Under the pieces are notes generated by a model that saw nothing but the letters and a program-made list of their open reading frames with translations, had not been told where the DNA came from and did not search any database. From positions 465 through 64,464 of the forward strand of contig SLJO01000170.1 in NCBI GenBank assembly GCA_007135095.1: a stretch of 64,000 nt of DNA, read 5' to 3'. Below, one piece after another: positions 15,246 to 44,524 of the stretch (within the stretch, counting starts at the first letter, position 1; every line of letters starts with the position of its first letter). Both the position numbers and the translations under genes were made by a program. Source of the DNA: Bacteroidales bacterium (GTDB taxonomy: Bacteria > Bacteroidota > Bacteroidia > Bacteroidales > PUMT01).

Positions 15246-15995
15246 TCAGAAATATATTTCTGAATAGATATTTTTAAAAGGTATGCCTTTTCTTATCAGG
15301 ATATCACGCACTTCAACCACCATTTCAGCCCTGCCGCAAAGATAAAAGGCCTGATCTGCCGGCAGATTTTCCTGTTCTTCAAGCCAGGCAGTCAGCCGCC
15401 CGGAATAAATGCCTTCCCTGTTTTCTCCCGGGCAGCAGCGTATATAATTTTCCTGCAAAACTGCAGCAAATTCTTCCTGGAAAAAGAACGAACCTGCAGT
15501 CCTTCCCCCATGTATCAGAATCTTATCCTTTCCCAGGCCTGAAAAAAACATTGAAGCAAAAGGGGCAATACCCGTACCCGTGGCAATCCACCAGGCTGGT
15601 TTTTCATAGCATGTGAACCACCCGAAGGGCGTTGTTACAAAGAGATTGTCTCCTTTTTTGCGCTCAGCAAGGAAGGGTGAAATAAAGCCACCGGGCTGAA
15701 TATCGAACAATATCTTTATATGTTCGTCATTTATGCCGCTTGCAATACTGTATAACCTGGCATCGGGAGCAGGCTTGAAGTGAATGCCTGTTACCTGGCC
15801 GGGATCAAAATCGAAATGGCGTTCCAGGCTGATTAAAAAAACCCCTTCTGCAATCTGCTCGTTATCAATAACTTTGGTTTTGATAAATTCGGCCGATGAG
15901 GGAAGAAGTGACGGGTTATCGCTCACAATTAATTTTTTTATGTTTTTGCCTCCTTTGTTGCAGGAATTAACGCAGTTTTCATGATAATAGTTCAT
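15246..15995 (-). CDS. Ferredoxin-NADP(+) reductase-like FAD/NAD(P)-binding oxidoreductase
   Basis: It has the FAD-binding RLYSIAS motif, the NAD(P)-binding ATGTGIAPF motif, and a C-terminal aromatic residue (SEIYF). The exact start is uncertain. Confidence 0.7.
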   Translation of the reverse strand: MNYYHENCVNSCNKGGKNIKKLIVSDNPSLLPSSAEFIKTKVIDNEQIAEGVFLISLERHFDFDPGQVTGIHFKPAPDARLYSIASGINDEHIKILFDIQPGGFISPFLAERKKGDNLFVTTPFGWFTCYEKPAWWIATGTGIAPFASMFFSGLGKDKILIHGGRTAGSFFFQEEFAAVLQENYIRCCPGENREGIYSGRLTAWLEEQENLPADQAFYLCGRAEMVVEVRDILIRKGIPFKNIYSEIYF

Positions 15996-16082: not shown

Positions 16083-16349
16083 ATGCCGGCAGTGAGCAGG
16101 CTGGCTGTAAGCCTTCGCTAACCATGGAATGCAATTAATTTAAATTGATTCTACTTAAGCAGCCTGTTTTTTCTTCCCGTATTTACCCGTATATACTTGG
16201 AAAGCCGGGAATGCCCGGGCGATTAATTCAAAGGATATATGTGCCGTTTAAAATAACTTTCAAATTCACTTACCCTGAGTTAAATAAAACTATTCCTTTA
16301 TACCTTTACGTTATATAACCGGATAGCAAAAAAGATGGGAGGGAAAGTG

Positions 16350-16637
16350 ATGAAAAAATTTTTGATCGAGGTTCCTCATAAAAACAACAAAAATGATTGC
16401 GAAAAAGCAATCCGGATTTTCCTGGATACGGGCTCTCATTTTTTAAACAAGGCAGACTGGGGCTGCACTGATGGTGAGCATAAAGCGTGGATCGTGGTGG
16501 AGGTTCCAAGGAAAGAAGATGCAAGGAACATAATACCCCCCCTGTACCGGCCCATTGCAAAAATAGTTGAATTGACAAGCTTTGACGTGGAGGAGACTGC
16601 AAAATACCATAAGGAAAGCTCTCCAAGAAGCAGGTAA
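16350..16637 (+). CDS. Small conserved Cys/His protein of unknown function (paralog A)
   Basis: The 95-aa ORF has 60/78 identical residues (hand count) with the ORF at 44246..44524. The ATG at 16350 is preceded by GGGAGGG. Confidence 0.75.
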   Translation: MKKFLIEVPHKNNKNDCEKAIRIFLDTGSHFLNKADWGCTDGEHKAWIVVEVPRKEDARNIIPPLYRPIAKIVELTSFDVEETAKYHKESSPRSR

Positions 16638-16681: not shown

Positions 16682-18625
16682 CTATTTCTGGTGTTTAATG
16701 AAGACAGCGCCCAGCGGGGGTAAAACAAGCGACAAGGTAAATGGTTTGCCATGTGAGGGGTGCTCCCAGGCATCAATTTCGCCTGAATTCTTCACGTTGC
16801 TTCCACCCAGGTTTCCGTCATCACTATTGAATAATTCAACCCATTTTCCGCCCGCGGGAACACCTATGTGATAATCATGTCTTACCACGGGAGTGAAATT
16901 GCATACTACCGCAATCAGCTCATCGCCGGTATCCCCCTTTCGTATAAAGCTGATCACGCTGTTTACCGTATCGTTGATATCAATCCATTCAAAGCCTGCC
17001 GGGTCAAACTGAAGTTCATAAAATGCTTTTTCCCTTCTGTAAACATCATTGAGTTTTTGTATCGTTTTCATAATTCCCTTATGATGGCCGTATTGCAGCA
17101 AATGCCAGTCCAGGCTCCTCTCATGGGCCCACTCGGAAGTCTGGGCGAATTCACTGCCCATAAAAAGCAGTTTTCCGCCGGGATGGGCAAACATATAGCT
17201 ATAGAGAAGCCTCAGGTTGGCAAACCGCTGCCATTCATCACCGGGCATTTTCCCTATCATAGATTTCTTTCCATACACCACCTCATCATGCGAAAGAGGG
17301 AGAATGTAATTTTCACTAAAGGCGTATACAATACTGAAGGTGATCTCATTCTGGTGGTAGTGCCGGTGCACGGGATCCTTTGAAAAATAACTGAGTGTGT
17401 CATGCATCCATCCCATCATCCACTTCATGTCAAAACCCAGTCCCCCCACATATGAAGGACGCGAAACCATGGGCCATGCGGTTGATTCTTCTGCCATGTT
17501 ATATATATCGGGAAATTCTTCATGGGTGGCTTCATTGACCTGTTTTAAAAAGCTTATCGCTTCAAGGTTTTCCCTGCCCCCGTATTTGTTTTTCACCCAT
17601 TCCCCCTCTTTGCGGGAATAGTCACGGTAAAGCATGGAAGCCACAGCATCTACCCTCAATCCGTCAATATGGTAAACCTCGAGCCAGAACAGTGCATTGC
17701 TGATAAGGAAACTCTTCACTTCATTTCTCCCGTAGTTGAAGATGTAGCTGCTCCAGTCGGGATGATAGCCTTCGCGCAAATCCTGGTGCTCATAAAGGTG
17801 CGAACCGTCAAAATATGAAAGGCCGTGCTGGTCAGAGGGAAAGTGCGAGGGAACCCAGTCAAGAATAATCCCGATGCCTTCCCGGTGAAGTTCGTTTATC
17901 AGGAACATAAAATCCTGTGGGGAGCCGTACCTGCTTGTCGGGGCAAAATAACCGGTAACCTGGTACCCCCATGAACCGTAAAAAGGATGCTCGGTCACTG
18001 GCATAAATTCAACATGGGTGAACCCCAGCTCCTTAATGTATGGGGGTAACCGGGCGGCAAGTTCACGATAGGTGAGATAGCGGTTACCTTCTTCCGGACA
18101 CCTTTGCCAGGATCCGAGGTGCATTTCATATACCGAAAAAGGTCTGGGCTTACCGGCGGTTTCTTTTCTTGTTTTCAGCCATTTTCTGTCATCCCAGGCA
18201 TATTTCCTGTCCCATATCACCGAGGCTGTGCGTGGAGGCTCTTCCCACATGAATGCATAGGGATCTCCCTTTTCAACACGGTAATTATTCAGGTTGGATT
18301 CTATATGGTATTTATAAGCCTCGCCATGGCCAATATCCGGAATAAATCCCTCCCATATTCCCGACCCGTCCCACCGCGCAAAAAGCTTGTGCAAGCGGGA
18401 ATTCCAGCCGTTGAAATTTCCTATAACACTTACTTCCCTGGCATTGGGTGCCCAGACACCAAAAAAGGTGCCTTTTCGCCCCTCCACTTCAACGGGATGG
18501 GAACCAAGCTTTTCATACAATTTAAAATGCCTTCCTTCCCTGAAAAGATGAATGTCGAAATCATTCATCAGGGAGTATGTAAATACCGGGCCTTCTTTTT
18601 CTGATTTCCCTGGATTCTTTTTCAT
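16682..18625 (-). CDS. glgB: 1,4-alpha-glucan branching enzyme
   Basis: It is a 647-aa GH13 protein with GIGIILDWVPSHF, DGLRVDAVASM, EESTAWP and LSHDEVV, which are typical GlgB regions. Confidence 0.92.
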   Translation of the reverse strand: MKKNPGKSEKEGPVFTYSLMNDFDIHLFREGRHFKLYEKLGSHPVEVEGRKGTFFGVWAPNAREVSVIGNFNGWNSRLHKLFARWDGSGIWEGFIPDIGHGEAYKYHIESNLNNYRVEKGDPYAFMWEEPPRTASVIWDRKYAWDDRKWLKTRKETAGKPRPFSVYEMHLGSWQRCPEEGNRYLTYRELAARLPPYIKELGFTHVEFMPVTEHPFYGSWGYQVTGYFAPTSRYGSPQDFMFLINELHREGIGIILDWVPSHFPSDQHGLSYFDGSHLYEHQDLREGYHPDWSSYIFNYGRNEVKSFLISNALFWLEVYHIDGLRVDAVASMLYRDYSRKEGEWVKNKYGGRENLEAISFLKQVNEATHEEFPDIYNMAEESTAWPMVSRPSYVGGLGFDMKWMMGWMHDTLSYFSKDPVHRHYHQNEITFSIVYAFSENYILPLSHDEVVYGKKSMIGKMPGDEWQRFANLRLLYSYMFAHPGGKLLFMGSEFAQTSEWAHERSLDWHLLQYGHHKGIMKTIQKLNDVYRREKAFYELQFDPAGFEWIDINDTVNSVISFIRKGDTGDELIAVVCNFTPVVRHDYHIGVPAGGKWVELFNSDDGNLGGSNVKNSGEIDAWEHPSHGKPFTLSLVLPPLGAVFIKHQK

Positions 18626-18637
18626 AGGTTCCCTGGT

Positions 18638-21600
18638 TTACTGTTCACTCTTTGATTTCATAATATAATTTATACCCTTTATGGGTATAAGCACCCAGTC
18701 CGGTCTGTTATTCAGCTCATAGCCTAATTCATAAACAGCCTTTTCAAGAATATAGGTGTCAAGCATTGTTTTCAGATCTTCTTTATTATCGGGTATCAGC
18801 CTTGTTTCTCCAAGTGCCCCGGTGTAGGTTTTCAGATATGTGCCACTTATATAATGATACCATAGCTCTGCCCACTTTTCAAGTATGTCAAAGTCTTCCT
18901 GCCTTATGGCTGAATAATTGAACAATGCGCTGTATGCAGCATAATGGAATGATCTTAACATTCCGGCAACATCCCTCAGAGGGGATCTCTTCAGGCGCCT
19001 TTCACTGAATGACCGTGCAGGTTCGCCTTCAAAATCAATGATAAAAAAATCCTTGCCTGTAAAAAGTACCTGTCCAAGATGGAAATCACCATGGTTCCTT
19101 ATTTTCAGGGAATTGAATTTTCTCGAATGAATCTTTTTCATCCGTATCAGGATATCATTTTTAATTACCAGGATACCGCGGGCTTCCTCTTTTACATTAT
19201 CCGGTATGCAAGCCATATTCTGTTCGAGCGACTGGAACGAGGACCTTGTCAGCGACTGGAGTGATGAAAATAAAGACCGCTGGTAGTGCAGTGAAAACGC
19301 TTCGGGTTCGAAATCCGGCTCACTGGAAGATGCCAGGCTTATATGCATTTCTGCAGTGCGTTTTGCCAGAAGACTCATCCTTTCAAAAACAGCAATTCCC
19401 ATTATATCTTTTATTTCTTCATCCAGTACACTGAAGGAATCCGGTTCCTCCAGTGTGCCAGTAAGCTGCGGGATATTCCTGAAATCAGGGAATGCAAGTA
19501 TCCTTTCAAAATAACGGTTTAGCTCATCAGCTGCATAATCCCAGGCGTCACCCTGATTTTCAACCATCTCCTGCATCATCCCCATGACCATTGGAGGCTG
19601 TTTCACCTGCAGGTGTTCAATGCCGCCCATGTACCTTGGAATATTGCCGAAAGAGGTTTTTTCAGTGAGAAATCGCAATATCTCCACGTCGGGATTAATA
19701 ACGCGGTCAAGCTTCCGGTACAACTTAAAGAAATATTTCCGGTTGAAAATGATGGATGTGTTACTCTGTTCGGCGCTCAATATTCTGGAGTGAAATTCCC
19801 TGGCCTCCTGCTCGGTTTTCTGTGCCTTTTTAAACTCGGAATTTACGTAAAACACCAGTTCTCCGCTTTTTTCCCTTATTTTCCTTCTTTTTGTCATGTA
19901 TTCATACACCGCCTCGCGGAATAACCTGCTGTAAACCGCATCATATAAAATTCCCTGGGTGTCGCCTATAGTTACAGGCGCAATGATTGACTGGACCGAT
20001 CCTTCGCGCAGCAGGGCTTCATATTCCCTGCTTGCAAAACTGACCGGCAGTTGATAAAACTCAGGCAATCCTTCAATATATTTTACCTCAATGATCAGCC
20101 ATGAAAACCGTTCGTGGTGGAATGTGAAATGGACAGCCTCGGAAATGCCAATTTCGCGGATCAGCCTGGCCTTTCCTCCAAACCACCTGCAGGTTTTGAT
20201 ATAGTTCCGGATCAATTTGCCTGTGAGCACCTTGGCATTGGAAGCCTTGAAAAGATCCTCGTATTTTGCCACCTTCATTTTAGGTACGTGGGTATCATCG
20301 ATCCTGGCCTTTGCCGGAACCGGCTGCTCCAGAAGGAACCAGTAATATCCGTGCGGACCGAGGGTAATCTGATATGAGGTTTCTTTTATTTTTGGGAATT
20401 TATTGTTGGAAAAAACCTCTATCGGGATATATTCCCTGTAACTGTGGAGATCAAGTTCGACGGGCTGGCTGTACCGGGACAGGTTTGCTATTACAAGGAT
20501 GGTCTCCTCCCTGTAGCATCTTAAAAAAGCAAGGACCTTTGAGTTGGAGGGAGACAGGAAATTTATGGTGCCGCGGCTGAAAGCCTTAAACTGCTTTCTC
20601 ATTCCAATAACCCGTTTGGTCCACCAGAACAGGGATGATGAATTGCTTTGTTGAGTTTCCACATTTACCGCTTCATACTGATATTCCGGATCAAGGATCA
20701 CAGGGAGATAAAGCTGCTGGGGATTTGCATCAGAAAAGCCGGCATTACGGTCGGCCGTCCACTGCATAGGTGTCCTCACCCCGTCGCGGTCGCCAAGATA
20801 AAAGTTGTCGCCCATGCCGATTTCATCGCCGTAGTAAAGGACAGGGGTGCCGGATAAGGAAAACAAAAGGTAATTCATCAGTTCTATCTTCCGCCGGTTA
20901 TTGTCTAGAAGAGGAGCAAGGCGGTGCCTGATACCCAGGTTTATTTTCGCCTTTGGATCCTTTGTATAGACCTTGTACATGTAATCCCTTTCTTCGTCGG
21001 TCACCATCTCAAGGGTCAGTTCGTCATGATTCCTGAGGAACATGGCCCATTGGCATGTTTCCGGGATTTCAGGGGTCTGGTCGAAAATATCCGTCAGAGG
21101 ATAGCGGTCTTCCATTTTCAGTGCCATAAACATACGGGGCATGATGGGGAAATGATAATTCATATGGCATTCATCACCATCTCCGAAATAGGCAGCTGAG
21201 TCTTCGGGCCACATATTTGCTTCGGCCAGGAGCAGCTTGCCGGTATATTTGGAGTCTACATGTGCCCTGAGTTTCTTCAGGAACACATGGGTCTCATCGA
21301 GGTTTTCACAATTTGTGTTTTCCCTTTCAAAGAGATAGGGAACGGCATCCAGGCGAAACCCGTCCACGCCCATATCCAGCCAGTAATCCAGCACCTTGAA
21401 TATTTCCTTCTGCACCTTTGGGTTATCAAAATTCAGATCGGGCTGGTGCGAATAGAAACGGTGCCAGTAATATTGATTTGCCACATTATCCCAGGTCCAG
21501 TTTGATTTTTCAAAATCCTTGAATATAATCCTAGCATCCTTGTATTTATCGGGATCGTCGCTCCAGACATAATAATTACGGTATGCCGAACCCCGTTTTG

Positions 21601-21991
21601 ATTTCCGTGCCCGCTGAAACCATGGATGCTCATCGGAAGTGTGGTTTATTACCAGCTCTGTTATGACCTTTAGATTCCGTTTGTGAGCCTCTCTGAGGAA
21701 CCGTCGGAATGAACGAATATCACCATATGACGGGTTTATGCGATAGTAATCGGAAATATCATATCCGTCATCACGCAGTGGCGAAGGGTAAAACGGAAGA
21801 AGCCATATAGCCGTTACCCCCAGGTTTTCCAGGTAATCCAGTTTGGAAAGCAATCCGTTGAAATCTCCGATACCGTCTGCATTGCTGTCGTAAAAAGCTT
21901 TGATATGAAGTTCGTAAATAATTGCATCCTTGTACCAGAGCAACTCTTCATCCAGCTCACTCACTTTGTTTTTTAATTCCTTTTTTGCCAT
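18638..21991 (-). CDS. treS: Trehalose synthase (maltose alpha-D-glucosyltransferase) fused to maltokinase
   Basis: The N-terminal GH13 TreS part reads LWYKDAIIYELH...DGIGDF...DGFRLDAVPYL. The C-terminal ~450 aa are a Pep2/Mak-like kinase (GDFHLGQVLF...IIDFEGEP...RSPLRDVAGMLRSFHYA). Confidence 0.9.
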   Translation of the reverse strand: MAKKELKNKVSELDEELLWYKDAIIYELHIKAFYDSNADGIGDFNGLLSKLDYLENLGVTAIWLLPFYPSPLRDDGYDISDYYRINPSYGDIRSFRRFLREAHKRNLKVITELVINHTSDEHPWFQRARKSKRGSAYRNYYVWSDDPDKYKDARIIFKDFEKSNWTWDNVANQYYWHRFYSHQPDLNFDNPKVQKEIFKVLDYWLDMGVDGFRLDAVPYLFERENTNCENLDETHVFLKKLRAHVDSKYTGKLLLAEANMWPEDSAAYFGDGDECHMNYHFPIMPRMFMALKMEDRYPLTDIFDQTPEIPETCQWAMFLRNHDELTLEMVTDEERDYMYKVYTKDPKAKINLGIRHRLAPLLDNNRRKIELMNYLLFSLSGTPVLYYGDEIGMGDNFYLGDRDGVRTPMQWTADRNAGFSDANPQQLYLPVILDPEYQYEAVNVETQQSNSSSLFWWTKRVIGMRKQFKAFSRGTINFLSPSNSKVLAFLRCYREETILVIANLSRYSQPVELDLHSYREYIPIEVFSNNKFPKIKETSYQITLGPHGYYWFLLEQPVPAKARIDDTHVPKMKVAKYEDLFKASNAKVLTGKLIRNYIKTCRWFGGKARLIREIGISEAVHFTFHHERFSWLIIEVKYIEGLPEFYQLPVSFASREYEALLREGSVQSIIAPVTIGDTQGILYDAVYSRLFREAVYEYMTKRRKIREKSGELVFYVNSEFKKAQKTEQEAREFHSRILSAEQSNTSIIFNRKYFFKLYRKLDRVINPDVEILRFLTEKTSFGNIPRYMGGIEHLQVKQPPMVMGMMQEMVENQGDAWDYAADELNRYFERILAFPDFRNIPQLTGTLEEPDSFSVLDEEIKDIMGIAVFERMSLLAKRTAEMHISLASSSEPDFEPEAFSLHYQRSLFSSLQSLTRSSFQSLEQNMACIPDNVKEEARGILVIKNDILIRMKKIHSRKFNSLKIRNHGDFHLGQVLFTGKDFFIIDFEGEPARSFSERRLKRSPLRDVAGMLRSFHYAAYSALFNYSAIRQEDFDILEKWAELWYHYISGTYLKTYTGALGETRLIPDNKEDLKTMLDTYILEKAVYELGYELNNRPDWVLIPIKGINYIMKSKSEQ

Positions 21992-43639: not shown

Positions 43640-44125
43640 TTAGTTCACATCTTTGGGGTAATCATAAACAACTCTCCTGAAATCGCTCATTTCAGGATTA
43701 TACCTTCTGGCGATATTCCCCAGTCGCCGGCTTGCCGGAATATTTCCGGGCAAATCAAGGGCTCTCAGAAAATGGGCCACCGGCACTCCGGTTTCTTGCT
43801 CCAACTCTGACAGTGTCATGGATCCGTGAATTGTAATTTCATCGTAGCGGGTATAAGGCGGATATTCTCTGTCATTCTCTGACGCTAATTCTCTTTGAGA
43901 GAGGAGAGGGGTAACTGCAATAATCACAACACCCAGCATAATCAGGCCTGTCTTGATGCCTGCCCTTTTCACTGGTTTGCCGATGGTCATATATACGATC
44001 CATTTCCAATGCAGGTAAATATGCAATACTATAAGCATGATAAACATTAGCGAGATCCAGAAGTGGATTGTGCCCAGTCGTGCCCTGTTTTTGTTGACAC
44101 TTCCGATTTCAGTTGTGACATTCAT
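43640..44125 (-). CDS. Small membrane protein (DUF4405-like N-terminal TM region plus a soluble C-terminal domain)
   Basis: Two TM segments include IHFWISLMFIMLIVLHIYLHWKW. The C-terminal motif SMTLSELEQETGVPVAHFLRAL is also present. The function is unknown. Confidence 0.55.
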   Translation of the reverse strand: MNVTTEIGSVNKNRARLGTIHFWISLMFIMLIVLHIYLHWKWIVYMTIGKPVKRAGIKTGLIMLGVVIIAVTPLLSQRELASENDREYPPYTRYDEITIHGSMTLSELEQETGVPVAHFLRALDLPGNIPASRRLGNIARRYNPEMSDFRRVVYDYPKDVN

Positions 44126-44245
44126 GCTGTGTTGTGAGTCTGAATGGCACAGATTTTGGGCGAATTTGAAAAATCACACAGCAGATGAAGTGTTCTATGA
44201 GCAAAAAAATTTCAGGTATCATAAAAATAATTGGAGGATTGGGAT

Positions 44246-44524
44246 ATGAAAAAGTTTATGATCGAAGTTCCTCATGGAGAAAACAAAAAAGATTGCGATA
44301 AGGCAATACGGGTTTTCCTGGAAACCGGCTCTCATTTTCTAAAAAAAGCCGACTGGGGATGCAAGGATGGCGTTCATAAAGCATGGATAATAGCAGAAGT
44401 TCCGGGTAAAGAAGATGCCAGGAATTTAGTCCCTCCCTTGTATCGCCCCACCGCAAAAATAGTTGAGCTAAATACCTTTACCTCGGAAGACATCAGCAAT
44501 CCTGTCAAATATCATAAGGAATAA
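44246..44524 (+). CDS. Small conserved Cys/His protein of unknown function (paralog B)
   Basis: The 92-aa ORF is 77% identical over 78 aa to the ORF at 16350..16637. Its ATG is preceded by GGAGG. Confidence 0.75.
   Translation: MKKFMIEVPHGENKKDCDKAIRVFLETGSHFLKKADWGCKDGVHKAWIIAEVPGKEDARNLVPPLYRPTAKIVELNTFTSEDISNPVKYHKE

Follow-up and report, generated by a model that had tools for sequence, protein, structure and literature searches.

Two genes of one family in the window

The analysed window is a stretch of 64,000 nucleotides from a Bacteroidales bacterium, and it holds two related genes on its forward strand. Copy A lies at 16350-16637 and encodes a protein of 95 amino acids, assigned to an uncharacterised His/Cys ferredoxin-fold family from its open reading frame (ORF), its homologues and an AF2 model. 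Copy B, at 44246-44524, encodes a paralogue of 92 amino acids and was recognised by its ORF and by BLASTP against copy A. The two proteins have 66 identities over 92 positions (72%, E 1e-51), and 60 of the first 78 residues, which align without gaps, are identical. The latter count was already given in the preliminary description and was reproduced exactly; the match is far above chance, and the residue pattern quoted there for both copies is correct. Longer ORFs are available at both loci, from an ATG at 16335 for copy A and from a TTG at 44231 for copy B. All homologues start with M-K/P-K/R-F/Y-L-I-E-V-P-H, and together with the position of the Shine-Dalgarno (SD) boxes these N-termini identify the ATG codons at 16350 and 44246 as the true starts, so that the coordinates first proposed for the two reading frames were right. 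Both products are basic (pI ~8.6) and 10.5-11 kDa in size, and no signal peptide was found in either of them. The family gene count for the whole assembly (4.0 Mb, 286 contigs, 94% complete, 45% GC) is two, namely copies A and B. A search of the window against Rfam returned no riboswitch or other RNA element, and scans for sigma-70 promoters and terminators gave nothing beyond the shuffled expectation.

Shine-Dalgarno leaders

Both genes are preceded by an SD-like sequence on the same strand. Copy A has GGGAGGG at 16337-16343, separated from its ATG by 6 nt, and copy B has GGAGG at 44233-44237, with a spacing of 8 nt. Ribosomes of Bacteroidia sequester their anti-SD sequence and are blind to SD boxes, with rpsU and rpsR as known exceptions (PMC9976891; PMC7797042). 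Counting either GGAGG or AGGAG before the first ATG as a box, we found one at 1.6% of the ORFs of at least 250 amino acids in this genome and in 2.3% of random 19-mers. Among family genes in Bacteroidota loci (L009-L084) the box was present in 27 of 47 (57%), and among neighbouring ORFs of the same loci in 22 of 298 (7%), kin not being independent in these counts. A strong box on both copies and on this share of their orthologues is unusual for Bacteroidia. The box persists where synonymous sites are saturated. As an alternative to selection on the leader, the family box may be a leftover of transfer from a phylum which does use SD sequences.

Two side observations concern the known exceptions. 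The Pfam model of bS21, the rpsU product, (PF01165) had no match in the 94%-complete assembly, though it does match in Bacteroides thetaiotaomicron. The rpsR gene, at C152:20379-20534, has only a weak AAGGAAG leader.

Age of the duplication and history of the loci

The copies had at first been taken for recently duplicated, and this part of the preliminary description did not survive. Comparison of the two genes by blastn gave 79.6% identity over 221 nt (16350-16570 against 44246-44466), in a match which begins at the first base of the ATG in both copies and stops within the coding sequence. The flanks were searched for the extended homology that a segmental duplication would leave, and no match was found in 1.3 kb on either side. 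Over 78 codons the Nei-Gojobori estimates were dS ~1.1, which is saturated, and dN 0.13, with a dN/dS of 0.12. Both copies are under purifying selection, and every signature residue is retained in each. A maximum-likelihood tree built from 95 members of the family paired copy A with P0001 (100/100) and copy B with P0004 (100/93), two proteins from other metagenome data, as sisters, and copies A and B were sisters in none of the 200 bootstrap trees. Because the DNA homology is confined to the coding sequence, dS is ~1.1 and the tree separates them, the copies are old paralogues, both keeping the full site, and a recent segmental duplication was rejected.

Only in L010 and L090, two close relatives of which the latter is from a congener, was the order RlmN, FNR-like gene, family gene and GlgB found again. 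GlgB adjoins the family gene also in L006-L009 and in L091. P0001, a 90%-identical orthologue of copy A, adjoins GlgB too, but its upstream gene differs. The locus of copy A beside glgB is thus the ancestral one. None of the fetched loci showed the gene order that surrounds copy B (AddA-like helicase, DUF4405, the family gene, radical-SAM). Beside copy A, the reverse strand of the window at 16682-21991 carries GlgB followed by a 1117-aa alpha-amylase/maltokinase-like fusion protein, and in the close relative L006 the next gene is GlgE-like; taken together, these genes resemble a cluster for an alpha-glucan pathway of the GlgE type, here in a genome of Bacteroidales.

Pairs of paralogues on one contig arose independently elsewhere, for example in a Nitrospirota MAG. 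The two copies of that MAG lie ~8 kb apart, at L118:1057-1335 (+) and L118:8935-9213 (-), and directly before the His of a C-x-D-G-x-H motif one has Glu and the other Val, which is the same difference as between copies A and B of the window. In an Anaerolineales MAG that also holds two copies, the residue at this position is Glu both times. In two Bacteroidales MAGs the apparent copy pairs (L033/L046 and L032/L077) have near-identical upstream 110 nt, and these may be co-binned strain variants rather than true paralogues.

Gene neighbourhood

Each copy is transcribed divergently from a gene on the reverse strand. Copy A faces an FNR-like flavin reductase (15246-15995; PF00175, E 4e-7, a weak match to PF00970, and a match in NCBIfam), and copy B faces a DUF4405-like membrane protein (43640-44125) whose match to PF14358 lies exactly at the cut-off (26.7 bits, E 8e-6). 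Both neighbours had been identified rightly from the start, but the meaning attached to a redox and a membrane gene at this position fails, since the FNR-like order is limited to L010 and L090, P0001 has another gene upstream, and the pairing with DUF4405 was seen at no other locus.

The neighbourhoods of homologues were surveyed by calling and clustering ORFs in 80 loci from other genomes. The commonest neighbour family was an aldo-keto reductase, in 9 of the 80 loci, followed by glutamate dehydrogenase, a BlaR1-like M56 peptidase, transaldolase, CorA and an AraC regulator in 4-7 loci each. These recurrent neighbours track synteny among related Bacteroidales. The median intergenic distance was 146 nt upstream and 136 nt downstream, and co-directional neighbours at 60 nt or less were present upstream in 11 loci and downstream in 7. 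The close co-directional set was mixed: Zn-ADH, SDR, F420/NADP oxidoreductase, GFO/IDH/MocA, two FAD_binding_3 monooxygenases, five SAM methyltransferases, two DUF4395 proteins, a cupin, YecM, DinB, GNAT and DUF1801. Such neighbours give the loci a loose flavour of small redox and detoxification genes, no more. DUF4405 was seen beside a family gene at no other locus fetched; among five congeners one homologue of it was found (in G011), on a contig other than that of its family gene. Across the 80 loci there was thus no conserved neighbour or operon partner. A functional link to the FNR-like gene, to DUF4405 or to any other neighbour was rejected in view of the low recurrence, the mixed operon candidates and the separate contig in G011, and in the absence of a conserved neighbour the FNR-like and DUF4405 genes represent local synteny only.

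Two conserved upstream blocks, each specific to a sub-clade, were noticed in two sets of loci (L018, L023, L038, L048, L058, L064 and L020, L030, L033, L036, L046). The first, TGAATGAACATAAGT, lies ~80-95 nt before the start, and the second is an inverted repeat TATAAC...GTTATA ~45-75 nt before the start. These blocks could be operators or merely reflect shared ancestry.

Distribution and database status of the family

The family comprised 450 clusters at 90% identity in a word-indexed search and 343 clusters at 50% identity in an exhaustive HMMER scan of 1.84 billion representatives. A scan of 185,579 species, with one genome per species, gave 432 loci. The best 80 of these 432 are all MAGs, mostly from Bacteroidales and Prolixibacteraceae, and the other taxa among them include Gemmatimonadota, Acidobacteriota, Chloroflexota, Nitrospirota, Omnitrophota, Methylomirabilota, Planctomycetota, Betaproteobacteria, Zixibacteria, WWE3 and more. 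The listed members all come from uncultivated bacteria of sediment, soil and groundwater. Identity across phyla is 50-60%, and most members are exactly 92 amino acids long; truncated entries in the databases resemble products of fragmented assembly or of frameshifts. The gene was present in 4 of 15 other species of the same genus, several of the genomes without it being 95-98% complete, in 12 of 401 genomes of the order that are at least 90% complete, and in 3 of 301 sampled genomes of the phylum to which a Deferrimicrobium MAG belongs. It is a rare, patchy accessory gene under strong constraint.

The remark in the preliminary description that the family was not recognisable is borne out. Neither copy had a match in Pfam, 43 members had none at E up to 10, and no Pfam domain is on record for members. 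Profile searches with NCBIfam and PADLOC gave no family match, nor did the PDB by sequence or by profile, and PHROGs returned just two matches at E 0.15, which is noise. The name in every source is 'hypothetical protein', and searching the literature with descriptive terms yielded no publication about these proteins. On these results membership of a known family was rejected, and neither the HMM searches nor those based on structure prediction gave a significant match to a well-characterised domain. Searches by tblastn of 72,556 plasmid and 50,697 phage records had zero matches and a Foldseek search of a viral library gave no fold match, so that carriage on mobile elements was rejected for these collections. 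An anti-phage defence or phage family was rejected on the PADLOC, PHROGs and tblastn results.

A rare distant subfamily (P0265, P0267, P0270-P0274; loci L101-L103) carries N-terminal signal peptides. Its members keep H10, C17, C39 and H44 (copy A numbering, as throughout), so exported versions of the module exist; the gene contexts of L101-L103 were uninformative.

Conserved signature

Residue conservation was counted in 311 full-length members. The strongest positions were G38 and C39 (99% each), C17 and H44 (98% each), W47 (97%), H10 (96%), and E7, P63 and R67 (95% each), and the full set E7-H10-C17-C39-H44-W47-R67 was found in 263 of the 311. In an alignment of 108 sequences C17, C39, H10, H30 and H44 were invariant, which upholds the first impression that the Cys residues of the DC and WGC motifs and several His residues do not vary. 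The four residues H10, C17, C39 and H44 are unvarying in Bacteroidota, Gemmatimonadota, Acidobacteriota, Chloroflexota, Nitrospirota, Planctomycetota, WWE3 and others; a lack of Cys/His conservation among homologues was looked for, and the residues were kept in 96-99% of the members across phyla. In the main clade G28-S29-H30 and D41-G42 hardly vary either, nor does a His that stands four residues from the C-terminus.

The four Cys/His residues are also lost together. Two or more of them were changed in 7 of the 311 sequences, whereas 0.7 would be expected if changes were independent, and in two sequences three or all four had gone. Shared ancestry and decaying genes could inflate this count. 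The conservation of the Cys and His residues from one phylum to another makes a metal-linked or redox-linked function a reasonable proposal for the family.

Predicted fold and position of the conserved residues

AF2, run on the monomer, gave a pLDDT of 77.5 with 38 sequences and of 88.8, with a pTM of 0.75, with 108 sequences. The model has strands at 2-9, 45-52 and 71-75 and helices at 14-27, 30-34, 55-59, 64-69 and 80-89. The predicted fold is an alpha+beta sandwich of ferredoxin-like type whose second strand is short. Foldseek found no significant match in the PDB; the best E value was 0.009 for the first model and, for the better second one, 0.06, at TM 0.52 or less. The entries listed are all ferredoxin-like and comprise chloromuconolactone isomerase ClcF, olivetolic acid cyclase, YCII HI0828, ABM monooxygenases, LsrG and YgiN, as well as Lrp RAM domains, RAM/ACT, ribosomal S6 and the HMA domains of Atx1, ATP7A and plants.

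In the ferredoxin-like topology the loop between strand 1 and helix 1, the hairpin of strands 2 and 3, and the loop between helix 2 and strand 4 share one pole. The near-invariant residues E7, H10, C17, G38, C39, H44, W47, P63, R67 and A70 map to these elements, and because all of them do so they probably form one functional site, a conclusion drawn from the topology of the fold. In the model H10, C17, C39 and H44 are thereby predicted at one pole of the fold, their closeness likewise following from the topology.

The list of structural neighbours would be in keeping with a cofactor-independent dimeric alpha/beta-barrel enzyme, of an isomerase, cyclase or monooxygenase-like kind; Cys, His and Glu would then be its active-site residues, situated in the sheet-helix cleft, and act on a small aromatic or electrophilic metabolite. 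The top Foldseek matches (ClcF, olivetolic acid cyclase, ABM monooxygenases, LsrG, YgiN and YCII HI0828) are enzymes or proteins of this group, and same-strand neighbours in other phyla are typical of tailoring or detoxification, i.e., SDR, Zn-ADH, two FAD_binding_3 proteins, five SAM methyltransferases, cupin and aldo-keto reductase. Conserved hydrophobic residues on the outer face of the sheet (L5, W47 and I72 in alignment A3) would also resemble a dimer interface. However, the structural matches are weak (E 0.009-0.1, TM 0.52 or less) and generic for the fold, and the HMMs of those families do not match. By the topology argument the conserved residues lie at the pole and not in the usual sheet-helix cavity, and no neighbour goes beyond 9 of 80 loci. 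We therefore regard an enzyme of this type as unlikely.

A second reading turns on macromolecular binding. The Cys/His cluster would then be a structural zinc knot in an adaptor or regulator, whose real job is to bind a partner protein encoded elsewhere, the ribosome or RNA. The gene stands alone as an accessory gene with no operon partner, a cross-phylum identity of 50-60% is very high for 92 amino acids and would fit a conserved macromolecular partner, and the fold is common to RAM/ACT and ribosomal S6 domains in the Foldseek list. The patchy spread of the gene (4 of 15 congeners, 12 of 401 genomes of the order) nevertheless argues against a universal partner. Conservation of the surface is, moreover, highest at the Cys/His pole itself. 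Such a role appears very improbable to us.

A candidate His2Cys2 metal site

The reading which we tentatively favour, as plausible though short of probable, is that the conserved pole is a His2Cys2 metal site. Each gene would give rise to a soluble cytoplasmic protein with a beta-alpha-beta-beta-alpha-beta ferredoxin-like fold. The candidate ligands are H10 (end of strand 1), C17 (first helical turn after it, in helix 1), and C39 and H44, which flank a tight C-x-D-G-x-H hairpin between strands 2 and 3. As C39 and H44 close this four-residue hairpin, their side chains should be neighbours. The four residues may chelate one transition-metal ion, most likely Zn(II) or Fe(II) in a tetrahedral His2Cys2 arrangement; Cu, Ni or a small Fe-S centre would be possible as well. 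E7, W47, P63, R67 and the conserved His of the C-terminal region would make up a second shell. The protein could then act as a small stand-alone metal-binding module, be it a carrier, a buffer, a sensor or a one-electron/redox centre, made from its own monocistronic gene and, in Bacteroidales, presumably through its unusual SD-led start.

In favour of a metal site, His and Cys are equally conserved and lost together among the 311 members. The signal-peptide subfamily with all four residues fits a metal or a disulfide role, and fits an Fe-S cluster less well. Against it, the family has no sequence or profile relation to HMA domains (hhalign probability 0.16%) or to any solved metalloprotein, and the neighbours have no metal theme, with CorA at 4 loci, an ArsR/ArsC-like pair at one, and the rest oxidoreductases and methyltransferases. 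In addition, a thiol-based catalytic site would be just as compatible with two Cys alongside Glu, Arg and His.

A rival reading, which we consider improbable, is thiol-disulfide redox chemistry, with C17, at the N-terminus of helix 1, as an activated thiolate, C39 as the resolving residue, and E7, R67 and the His residues tuning the chemistry. The protein would on this view serve as a reductase or peroxidase of small size, or as a sensor of redox state, in the manner of Ohr/OsmC or ArsC-type enzymes. Of the two invariant Cys one lies in the first turn of a helix, and an invariant Glu and Arg are found at the same pole. Oxidoreductase, DinB and ArsR/LMW-phosphatase neighbours are frequent, though not conserved, and the window itself has FNR-like and cytochrome-b-like neighbours. 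Against a dithiol mechanism, both His are as strictly conserved as the Cys and are lost with them, which such a mechanism does not need. A thioredoxin-type CxxC is absent, and the 80 loci showed no conserved reductase partner. Selenocysteine variants, sought as a marker of redox function, were absent: all genome-search matches were without internal stops, and in none of them, including those from the 301 genomes of the phylum of the Deferrimicrobium MAG, was an in-frame TGA variant seen.

A bolder proposal would join the site to the leader. The family might represent an unprecedented His/Cys metal or Fe-S centre on a ferredoxin-like scaffold and, through its conserved SD leader in Bacteroidales, be a client of an SD-competent subpopulation of ribosomes (e.g., those without bS21), made only in particular physiological states. 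This we regard as a long shot. If the His2Cys2 site proves real, the proteins would be an undescribed and widely scattered small metalloprotein or redox family, worth a family definition and a structure. As it stands, the family is well defined, absent from databases and marked by a clear active-site signature, a conserved hypothetical rather than a new system.

Comparison with known systems

The CDGSH proteins of the mitoNEET type use three Cys and one His in the motif C-x-C-x2-(S/T)-x3-P-x-C-D-G-(S/A/T)-H. Their Cys-Asp-Gly-x-His turn resembles the C-x-D-G-x-H hairpin of the family, a likeness that is a lead only. Membership was rejected, because the family has only two conserved Cys, a C-x-D-G-x-H spacing, a different fold and no Pfam match.

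The closest structural neighbours are the dimeric alpha/beta-barrel proteins (ABM PF03992, MIase PF02426, YCII PF03795 and Dabb PF07876), which share a length of 90-100 amino acids and a ferredoxin-like fold with the family and are, like it, encoded by stand-alone small genes, often near oxidoreductases. The Foldseek matches to them are weak (E 0.009-0.1, TM 0.45-0.52), without any HMM match, and in contrast to the family these enzymes have no invariant Cys2His2 set. Homology to the GYD domain (PF08734) was rejected as well, with no Pfam match and an hhalign probability of 0.09% for alignment A3 against a Bacteroidia GYD protein.

For the putative metal site the HMA domains (PF00403; Atx1/CopZ, MerP) offer the nearest parallel. 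HMA metallochaperones bind metal at the very pole of the ferredoxin-like fold that is conserved here. They are likewise small beta-alpha-beta-beta-alpha-beta modules, and HMA structures are among the Foldseek matches. The geometry proposed for the ligands is plausible in this light, as H10 and C17 take up the same places as the metal-binding residues of HMA chaperones, namely the loop between strand 1 and helix 1 and the opening turn of that helix. Both groups have cytoplasmic and signal-peptide forms, and the pair of periplasmic MerP and cytoplasmic CopZ parallels the exported and cytoplasmic members of the family. The differences are as clear. Neither GMxCxxC nor CxxC occurs in the family alignments A1-A3, which have H10-x6-C17 instead, so the ligands would be His-x6-Cys and, from a second loop, Cys-x4-His; moreover, the family is ~30 residues longer, with a C-terminal helix. 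There was no Pfam match to HMA, and hhalign of A3 against 14 HMA domains gave the probability of 0.16% quoted above. Since profile comparison rejected homology, HMA serves as an analogy of possible working and not as a family assignment.

The leaders of copies A and B have their counterpart in rpsU, which encodes bS21, and in the rare other SD-led genes of Bacteroidia (PMC9976891). Common to both are a strong GGAGG and canonical spacing in a lineage whose ribosomes as a rule disregard SD sequences. They differ in that rpsU has an extended SD of 10-13 bp and a product which masks the anti-SD, whereas the family has a core of 5-7 nt and an unrelated product; no Bacteroidales meet the criteria of rpsU autoregulation (PMC9976891). 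The family would be a second, non-ribosomal class of Bacteroidia genes with an SD under selection, and would give a handle on when ribosomes unmask their anti-SD.
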